From: Minisyncoccota bacterium
Lineage (GTDB): Bacteria > Patescibacteriota > Minisyncoccia > Phycocordibacterales > CSBR16-119
Reading direction: 5' to 3'
DNA length: 64,000 bases
Assembly (NCBI GenBank): GCA_041389105.1
Contig: JAWKSO010000002.1
Location: 18,336 to 82,335, forward strand
Shown: positions 59,700-59,897 of the stretch, one piece after another
How the letters are laid out: each line of letters starts with the position of its first letter
Position numbering within the stretch: position 1 is the first letter of the stretch
The notes under the pieces: model-generated
The model's input: only the letters and a program-made list of their open reading frames with translations
What the model was told of the DNA's origin: nothing
The model's database searches: none
Translations under genes and position numbers: made by a program

Positions 59700-59897
59700 C
59701 ATAAAAAACAGTAGTGCCTTTCGGCGCTTTTATTTTTTGAGCGGGGAGATGAGCTAAAAAGCACTCGCGTGCTTTGCGTGCGGGAATCGAAAGGCGCAGG
59801 TATATTTTTGTTTGAGCTTTGCGAAAGGCAAAAATACCGAGCCGGGGTCGCGAAATTTTTCCGTCAGGAAAATATTTGTGACCGATCCGCAATCTTT
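59700..59897 (+). repeat. tmRNA-3'-end-associated structured insert, copy B (family 1)
   Basis: Terminator at 59713-59739. GGGGAGATG (59743-59751) and GCGGGAATCGAA (59780-59791) are reverse complements of the tmRNA acceptor 3' strand and T-arm. Also has a GCAC-TCGC-GTGC hairpin, the core GAGCCGGGGTCG, a TTTTCC/GGAAAA hairpin, and GTGAC followed by a degenerate tmRNA 3' end CGATCCGCAATCT. Confidence 0.65.

Follow-up and report, generated by a model that had tools for sequence, protein, structure and literature searches.

Genomic islands and prophages reportedly enter tRNA and tmRNA genes by means of tyrosine integrases, the process that Williams is said to have described as "traffic at the tmRNA gene." Integrases that target tRNA genes give a repeat with one limit inside the T-loop and the other, in most cases, at the tRNA 3' terminus. 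The inserts that we analyze here, one of which (insert B) follows the tmRNA gene ssrA in a member of the Patescibacteria, resemble such islands in their T-loop site, in the direct repeat of the 3' part of a gene that stays functional, in tandem occupancy, and in strain-to-strain turnover at ssrA. In contrast to the islands, they have neither integrase nor cargo, their repeat is derived from the target (as seen at locus L053, below), and a structured single-strand interior is common to the sites at all tRNAs. IS200/IS605 elements and PATEs, which are miniature derivatives of them, are likewise small, strand-specific, and hairpin-rich, and in these elements the bases adjacent to a hairpin pair with the target and set the insertion site, so that changing the element's own bases resets target choice. 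These elements make no duplication, have targets of 4 to 5 nt, and carry simple subterminal hairpins, whereas our family shows a duplication of ~19 nt, a three-way junction, and complementarity of up to 19 to 24 nt, with no linked TnpA or TnpB.

Three further systems share part of this organization. The bridge (seek) RNAs of IS110/IS1111 are structured noncoding RNAs of ~100 to 180 nt and, as in the family, have target-complementary segments that vary by copy. They lie inside an element encoding a DEDD recombinase, their target and donor loops read both strands around a 2-nt core, and no long duplication arises; the inserts described here instead have no open reading frame (ORF), a single block of complementarity to one target strand, and the ~19-nt duplication. 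Bacterial MITE-like repeats (Correia, ERIC, RPE, and REP/BIME) are also short, noncoding, multicopy, palindrome-forming, and nonautonomous, with element-borne terminal inverted repeats and short duplications of fixed length. Our family has a near-fixed duplication as well (mode, 19 nt), but its right arm is target sequence and its left arm varies with the target, insertion is at a tRNA T-loop, and covariation of the interior is of the kind seen in RNA. Integration at the 3' end of tRNA genes with a long, stagger-set duplication is found in the Cas1 systems, that is, casposons and CRISPR spacer integration, where the duplication measures 14 to 15 bp (casposons) or one repeat length (CRISPR arrays). 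Those systems are large protein-coding elements or arrays, whereas here there is no linked Cas1, and both the length of the duplication and its left boundary differ.

The window (the whole stretch of 64,000 nucleotides analyzed here, from a Minisyncoccota bacterium) has a G+C content of 36.6% and contains smpB and ssrA (Table 1). Insert B, 180 bases long, lies directly 3' of the tmRNA gene, and the stretch of ssrA that it repeats and complements runs from the T-loop C (59682) to the 3' end. Direct inspection of the sequence recovered every feature listed in the original prediction at its coordinates, and the modular layout that it described, with modules in the same order as in copy A at tRNA-fMet, was confirmed. 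Block Y together with the following AA (59790-91) constitutes GCGGGAATCGAA (59780-91), the exact 12-nt complement of the T-arm TTCGATTCCCGC (59680-91). This match is not due to chance: with at most one mismatch it was expected 0.23 times in the window and was seen three times, a number that none of 100 shuffles reached. The degenerate repeat CGATCCGCAATCT, starting at 59883, is identical to the tmRNA tail at 12 of 15 aligned bases. Copy B is regarded as an ageing copy: its repeat has decayed, and in close strains its core is truncated (L119) or deleted (L120). The core of copy B is separated from ssrA by a terminator, a search for a promoter-like site was negative, and any RNA made from copy B is putative. 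The presence of this ssrA-proximal terminator in copy C as well shows that it is part of the insert.

Table 1. Positions in the window of ssrA, the modules of insert B, and copies A and C
Feature	Position	Strand	Evidence or remark
smpB	58818-59261		
ssrA (tmRNA), target gene	59321..59700	+	ARAGORN; Rfam RF00023, 119.3 bits
Terminator-like hairpin AGTGCCTTTCGGCGCT plus T-run, first module of insert B	59713..59738	+	Hairpin with T-run mapped to 59713-59728
Block X GGGGAGATG, outer 5' strand of P1	59743..59751	+	GGAGATG complements acceptor strand CATCTCC (7 nt)
Module P0, hairpin AAAGCAC-TCGC-GTGCTTT	59757..59775	+	GCAC/GTGC part at 59761-72
Block Y GCGGGAATCG, inner 5' strand of P1	59780..59789	+	P1 covariation
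Three-way-junction core of copy B	59790..59882	+	R1 alignment, pair counts, minimum-free-energy (MFE) fold
Core, J AAAG	59790-93	+	
Core, P2 GGC/GCC	59793-95 with 59841-43	+	Reproduced by MFE fold
Core, internal loop GCA/GA, then long P2a hairpin	P2a 59799-59838	+	P2a reproduced by MFE fold
GAGCCGGGGTCG within core	59839-50	+	
Core, GGGG	59844-47	+	
Core, P3 hairpin UCG...UGA with bulged A, then C59882	P3 59848-59881	+	P3 reproduced by MFE fold
TTTTCC/GGAAAA hairpin	59857-72	+	
GTGAC	59878-82	+	
Decayed direct repeat of tmRNA 3' segment, CGATCCGCAATCTTT versus CGATTCCCGCCATCTCC; 3' strand of P1, target-derived duplication	59883..59897	+	
Copy A, 188-nt insert after tRNA-fMet	27397..27584	+	R1, 42-55 bits
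Copy C	62205..62432	+	R1, 31-40 bits

A search pattern drawn from copies A, B, and C was scanned against species-representative genomes and matched at least 118 loci. Among the matches listed, almost all are in Patescibacteria MAGs, the host groups being Saccharibacteria, Paceibacterota, and Nomura-, Morani-, Kaiser-, Yonath-, Taylor-, and Lloydbacteria. A few genuine copies are found on contigs binned as Polaromonas, Bdellovibrionales, or Elusimicrobia; two matches in proteobacterial MAGs (L009 and L069) lie in apparent coding sequence and are not recovered by the covariance model. This model, R1, was built from an alignment of 38 copies, all from genomes other than that of the window. It identifies at least 139 further copies in 100 loci of Patescibacteria MAGs (maximum, 4 per 8 kb) and scores site B at 55 to 64 bits (E 3e-14 to 5e-16), so that relatives of insert B do exist outside the window. 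The copies lie downstream of tRNAs of 20 specificities, tRNA-SeC, and tmRNA, in inserts of 110 to 200 nt that carry no ORF. Many lack X, the hairpin, or the terminator and start 17 to 23 nt after the tRNA, and the minimal unit is therefore Y, core, and repeat.

The hairpin between X and Y had been read as terminator-like. It is a conserved module, P0, whose stems covary and which also occurs beside tRNA-Val, tRNA-Leu, other tRNAs, and, in other genomes, tmRNA. The P0 position is occupied by AAGCCAA/TTGGCTT, AAGTAAA/TTTACTT, AAGTGAA/TTCACTT, and AAATGCC/GGCATTT hairpins, with a loop that is mostly CUGC, and such covarying hairpins are seen in L008, L019, L025, L029, L031, L036, L047, L086, L089, and L103. 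P0 is thus not a terminator; it is a module that one subfamily has conserved.

Known RNA families did not account for the element. In a search of the window with Rfam 15, only tmRNA and tRNAs met the gathering score; at E ≤ 10, the top scores over 59690-59920 were 8 to 14 bits against cutoffs of 33 to 85, and the cores of six other loci gave no match at E ≤ 5. Group I and group II introns gave no Rfam match, the ends are neither GUGYG nor omega-G, and the functional tRNA is uninterrupted; the interrupted tRNAs at copies are decaying pseudo-tRNAs that adjoin an intact gene. Self-cleaving ribozymes (hammerhead, twister, twister-sister, pistol, hatchet, and HDV-like) gave no Rfam match at permissive E-values, and, judged by eye, the junction was a poor fit to a kink-turn, a hammerhead, or a BHB intron. 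Insert B belongs to a large family of structured noncoding mini-elements beside tRNA and tmRNA genes of bacteria of the candidate phyla radiation (CPR). The family is apparently uncatalogued, being absent from Rfam 15, and no description of such elements was found in the full-text literature searched.

Two groups of sequences stand near this family. Reduced relatives of the core, which consist of P2a and P3 only and lack GGGGUCG, are found at the tips of locus-specific inverted repeats of 17 to 45 nt that are not tRNA-derived (L049 ~2981-3011, L107 ~6766-6817, L067 ~5680-5730, L045 ~6127-6174, L058 ~359-403, and L013 ~1776-1826). Some of these inverted repeats resemble terminator stems, and their occupation suggests that hairpin tips in general can serve as targets. 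On G+C-rich metagenome contigs from outside this radiation (L145, L167, L222, L242, and L225), the sequence after tRNA-Ser genes begins with a terminator; next come the tRNA 3' end in inverted and imperfect form, 50 to 100 nt of G+C-rich hairpins, and a direct repeat from T-loop A58/59. The R1-type core is absent from these five, which may represent an analogous family in other phyla.

The conserved part of the element, as aligned in 38 copies, is a three-way junction of ~90 nt. From its 5' end it runs through the 5' strand of P1, J (AAAG), P2 (G-N-C with G-N'-C), an internal loop GGA/GA, P2a (loop usually GACG), GGGG, P3 (UCG...UGA, in which one A is bulged), one unpaired C, and the 3' strand of P1. 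In the alignment of 38 copies (A2), 89% of the cells are paired, and 161 cells show double changes, compared with 58 ± 7 in shuffled controls and 10 to 31 in slid controls. In the alignment of 88 model hits (A3), which is itself fitted to the model and includes many hits outside the original pattern, 90.2% of the cells are paired, all 31 of 31 pairs have compensatory changes, and 550 cells show double changes (shuffled controls, 153 ± 14; slid controls, 73 to 129). The junction purines AAAG, GGA/GA, and GGGG are invariant; since the pattern used to find loci fixes part of the core, the invariance of some core columns is partly imposed. The X/Y bases of the P1 5' strand pair with the repeat and thereby close the junction. 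In the 88 copies, these positions of the closing helix show covariation with the local tRNA, in its T-loop and its T-stem, in agreement with the proposal that the target-matching bases are swapped to suit the adjacent gene.

The core helices contain 56 G:U against 4 A:C appositions, and one G:U is near-invariant (82 of 87). Because they accept G:U and not A:C, the tRNA-sense strand (tmRNA-sense in copy B) is the working strand, and the predicted fold of copy B is of lower energy on the plus strand (-56.4 kcal/mol; z, -3.0) than on the minus strand (-39.5 kcal/mol; z, -1.5). Outer P1 has no G:U preference (11 G:U versus 26 A:C), and its complementarity looks like that of a decaying DNA-level inverted repeat. 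The core is under selection as a single strand in the tRNA sense. The simplest such form would be RNA made by read-through transcription from the promoter of the tRNA or tmRNA gene; single-stranded DNA would yield the same covariation as RNA. These strand data conflict with the original prediction, in which the minus strand of insert B held an inverted pseudo-3' end of tmRNA, interrupted by a terminator, with transcription in the antisense direction. The minus strand does give TTCGATTCCCGC, a hairpin with a T-run, and ATCTCC in that order; however, the G:U/A:C asymmetry and the folding energy both prefer the plus strand, the hairpin is a covarying, conserved module at many tRNAs, and X and Y are short or contiguous in many copies, so that we regard the antisense reading as extremely unlikely. 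What had appeared to be an inverted copy split by a hairpin is the 5' strand (X plus Y) of the closing helix P1, and the downstream repeat is its 3' strand.

The core ends with GUGAC and is followed by the tRNA repeat, which normally extends from C56 of the T-loop to about nt 74 or 75. The mode of its length is 19 nt; 27 of 41 repeats are 18 to 22 nt long and end at nt 73 to 76. Where the tRNA has a TTCAA T-loop, the repeat begins with CAA and Y ends with TTG. The origin of the repeat is best seen at L053, where two inserts of 131 nt, 100% identical with spacer and X/Y included, lie at tRNA-Ser(CGA) and tRNA-Ser(TGA). Each is bordered by a 19-nt repeat (C56 to C74) of its own tRNA, and their X/Y matches the TGA gene better than the CGA gene. 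Since identical inserts bear different repeats, which an element-borne att copy cannot do, the repeat is derived from the target. Gene conversion between the inserts could mimic this arrangement, and only one such identical pair was found. Inserts with 92 to 100% identity are also present at tRNA-Arg, tRNA-Lys, and tRNA-Glu genes of different MAGs. That X-hairpin-Y generally arose from a tRNA duplicate whose 5' half had shrunk was rejected, as X/Y is often contiguous with the trailer, complements the T-loop, and mismatches the local tRNA in L053. Repeats and X/Y are decayed in many copies. An apparently better preservation of X/Y than of the repeat, which would have suggested action in trans on the real tmRNA, was seen only in ungapped comparison (117 versus 36 positions) and was removed by gapped local alignment (15.9 nt for the repeat and 13.0 nt for X/Y).

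The neighboring tRNA gene stays intact and is followed by the element-borne spacer, which is often a terminator. About eight copies show the opposite layout, lying in the T-arm of a pseudo-tRNA duplicate with the intact tRNA following, and a simple 19-nt stagger does not account for these. One copy occupies GGGGGAT^CGTC in a partial duplicate of tRNA-Gln, where it separates the acceptor strand from the D stem (L115, minus strand, ~6876-6947; GGGGG^...^CGTCTAATGG), and nested copies occur at GGGG^TCGA; in L016 and L045, one core lies at the P3 start of another, the same arrangement in two MAGs. Such varied contexts point to a small sequence target, roughly GGNT^CG. A degenerate tRNA-Ser pattern matched 120 unrelated metagenome loci, none of them orthologous to L053, and no empty-site allele that would show insertion directly was recovered.

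At its left, the insert starts where the mature tRNA ends (nt 74 to 76), as it would if a read-through transcript, with its 5' end formed by tRNA 3' processing, were reverse transcribed in a SINE-like manner at a T-loop nick, with T-loop microhomology priming and a second nick ~19 nt away giving the duplication. The same route would suit the selection on the sense single strand and the opposite-layout duplication, which begins at tRNA +1 (±2), and reverse transcriptases of diversity-generating retroelements are common in this radiation. However, repeats lack CCA where the gene lacks CCA (copy A, L099, and L113), which excludes copying from mature tRNA. The coincidence at the 3' end is already explained by a fixed stagger: C56 to N73 is always 18 nt, so that a 19-nt stagger from C56 reaches nt 74 in any tRNA and no RNA step is needed. 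In addition, no reverse transcriptase was found near the copies in the loci listed or in the window, which also argues against a retron noncoding RNA, as this would adjoin a reverse-transcriptase gene. An RNA intermediate is possible and not required, and the SINE-like route as a whole is, in our judgment, quite unlikely.

Comparison of ssrA among relatives revealed turnover. In five contigs, SmpB is identical and tmRNA is nearly identical, and the immediate downstream sequence differs in each. The window has copy B, 2.3 kb, and copy C; in L119, copy B is truncated in the P3 loop; L120 retains the terminator and X-hairpin-Y and has lost the core; L121 has a GIY-YIG ORF in place of the long P3; and L122 has no element. 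The region downstream of ssrA is thus a rearrangement hot spot. The 2.3 kb separating B from C (59900-62240) contains short ORFs only, none with a family match. A layout like that of B and C is present in L094 (1700-4500), where a full and a degenerate copy with a common 49-nt repeat (GTGACCGAGAGCGTACTCGCGGTCCCTGTCGGGCAGCCAACTCGTGCGA) bracket ~2.5 kb encoding an endonuclease/exonuclease/phosphatase-family protein and small ORFs. Small GIY-YIG ORFs (~66 to 79 amino acids) are found as separate cassettes: inside the long P3 of the tmRNA-linked element in L121 (2184-2423), right after a tRNA and between direct repeats of ~34 nt in L029 (6448-6678), and between perfect 20-nt inverted repeats in L105 (5916-6113). 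The GIY-YIG endonuclease was rejected as the element's own gene, because its homologues are independent cassettes present in only four or five loci.

The hypervariability downstream of ssrA, the flanking of 2.3 to 2.6 kb of unrelated genes by B and C and likewise by the two L094 copies, and repeat limits resembling those of tRNA-targeting integrases would all be expected of integrase-island scars, in which a prophage or island entering at the T-loop supplied its own version of the gene's 3' end, the repeat is attR, and the insert is a remnant of the attP arms after loss of cargo. Several observations argue against this explanation. The same core recurs beside tRNAs of every specificity, and none of the ~120 loci listed has an integrase in its neighborhood; no tyrosine or serine recombinase was found in the cargo between paired copies, near the loci listed, or among the window ORFs; the identical L053 inserts have different, locally matching repeats; the core has zero matches in 2.9 million viral contigs, phage records, and plasmids; and G:U-tolerant covariation is not expected of duplex attP arms. 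The scar explanation is thereby largely refuted, and we consider it very unlikely.

A partner enzyme was also sought around the copies. Clustering of 1467 ORFs around the 118 loci listed gave no enriched family, and the top clusters are housekeeping proteins (RluD, L19, IF-2, MiaA, RbfA, and the CCA-adding enzyme). Among the window ORFs of at least 140 amino acids, there is no integrase, transposase, reverse transcriptase, or Cas protein, the cargo between paired copies likewise encodes none, and no TnpA was found near the copies. A search for full-length versions bearing an ORF (core halves more than 110 nt apart) retrieved only the truncated L119 and the disrupted L121 elements.

Within the window, a 20-nt repeat, CGAGTCGGCCCCCCGCAACA, borders copy A on both sides without mismatch (27377-27396 and 27585-27604), with a terminator after each repeat, and the sequence of copy A is identical in three assemblies (the window and two others). 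Copy C comprises a decayed tmRNA 3' end (~62205-62235), a B-type terminator (~62250-62275), X-P0-Y, a core with a long P3, GTGAC (62417-21), and a decayed repeat. Beyond B, A, and C, the R1 scan of the window gave no other convincing match. A fourth insert with the same logic, copy D (minus strand, 26727-26885), lies downstream of tRNA-Asp (26886-26960) and consists of a terminator, GGGACTTGAAC (which complements the T-loop), then GGGGGTCG, hairpins, and GTGAAAC, and finally a 25-nt repeat without mismatch (TCCCGTCGTTCGCGCAAATACAAAA) and a second terminator; it is not recognized by R1 and may be diverged or belong to a different family. At 17700-17770, ARAGORN calls a tRNA of undetermined type, which is tRNA-Gln-like apart from an odd T-arm; its last 11 nt recur in inverted form (CTAGTCCAGCA) immediately afterward, at 17788-17800. 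Several window genes appear split or truncated (38290-40872, 24420-25241, 28901-29335, and 63137-63450): a T2SSE/PilB-like ATPase is spread over three ORFs, a release-factor ORF (PCRF/RF-1 domains) is a fragment, a GatA-like amidase is reduced to a 144-amino-acid piece, and the homologue of a 106-amino-acid ORF of L121 and L025 is divided between two reading frames. These may reflect assembly errors, pseudogenes, or recoding.

Conservation of the core between Saccharibacteria and Paceibacterota is extreme and extends to noncovarying positions of the helices (e.g., AUUUUUC...GAAAAAU), and near-identity across such deeply separated classes could indicate a host function instead of mobility. The inserts would then be genes for a useful RNA, cotranscribed with the tRNA, processed by tRNA enzymes through an acceptor/T-like minihelix (X/Y plus repeat), and bound by a conserved protein, with the duplications as by-products of rare recombination. 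The invariant junction purines and the near-invariant G:U fit this explanation, as do the many copies located 17 to 23 nt after a tRNA, which must be cotranscribed with it because no terminator intervenes. On the other hand, copy number and presence differ among near-identical strains, cores have been cut short or lost with nothing in their place, many copies have decayed repeats and X/Y, nested and tandem copies occur, and no gene is linked to the element. On balance, a host RNA gene seems unlikely.

We favor, as probably correct, the interpretation that the inserts are nonautonomous, noncoding elements of Patescibacteria that insert specifically at tRNA and tmRNA genes and that insert B is one member. 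Insertion would take place in the T-loop, at T55|C56, with an ~19-nt stagger, and the element would be mobilized in trans by an enzyme encoded neither in it nor next to it. Its X/Y strand may help to pick the target by base pairing, or may grow after insertion via palindrome-correcting template switching. A more specific version, in which the element guides itself, is conceivable though unlikely, with a probability similar to that of a host RNA: X/Y would pair with the sense strand of the tRNA gene or with the tRNA, from the T-loop to the acceptor end, and place the junction at T55|C56, and insertion would be carried out by a trans-acting enzyme that recognizes the junction or by the RNA itself.

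In these reduced genomes of ~1 Mb, a strongly conserved element present in several copies per sampled 8 to 64 kb has appeared in neither Rfam 15 nor the literature searched. Either as a mobile element or as a host RNA, it accounts for many of the "tRNA 3'-end repeats" and pseudo-tRNA calls in these MAGs, and the covariance model can be used for annotation and for an enzyme search through phylogenetic profiling. If the inserts are mobile, they would occupy essential tRNA genes harmlessly, by duplicating the 3' segment and supplying a terminator, and it may be the bases of the element itself that determine the choice of target. If they are self-guided, they would amount to a natural, programmable insertion system of a new kind, which would read as much as ~19 nt of target and need no gene of its own. 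If, instead, they encode a host RNA, that RNA would be a widespread new partner of tRNA genes in a major bacterial radiation.
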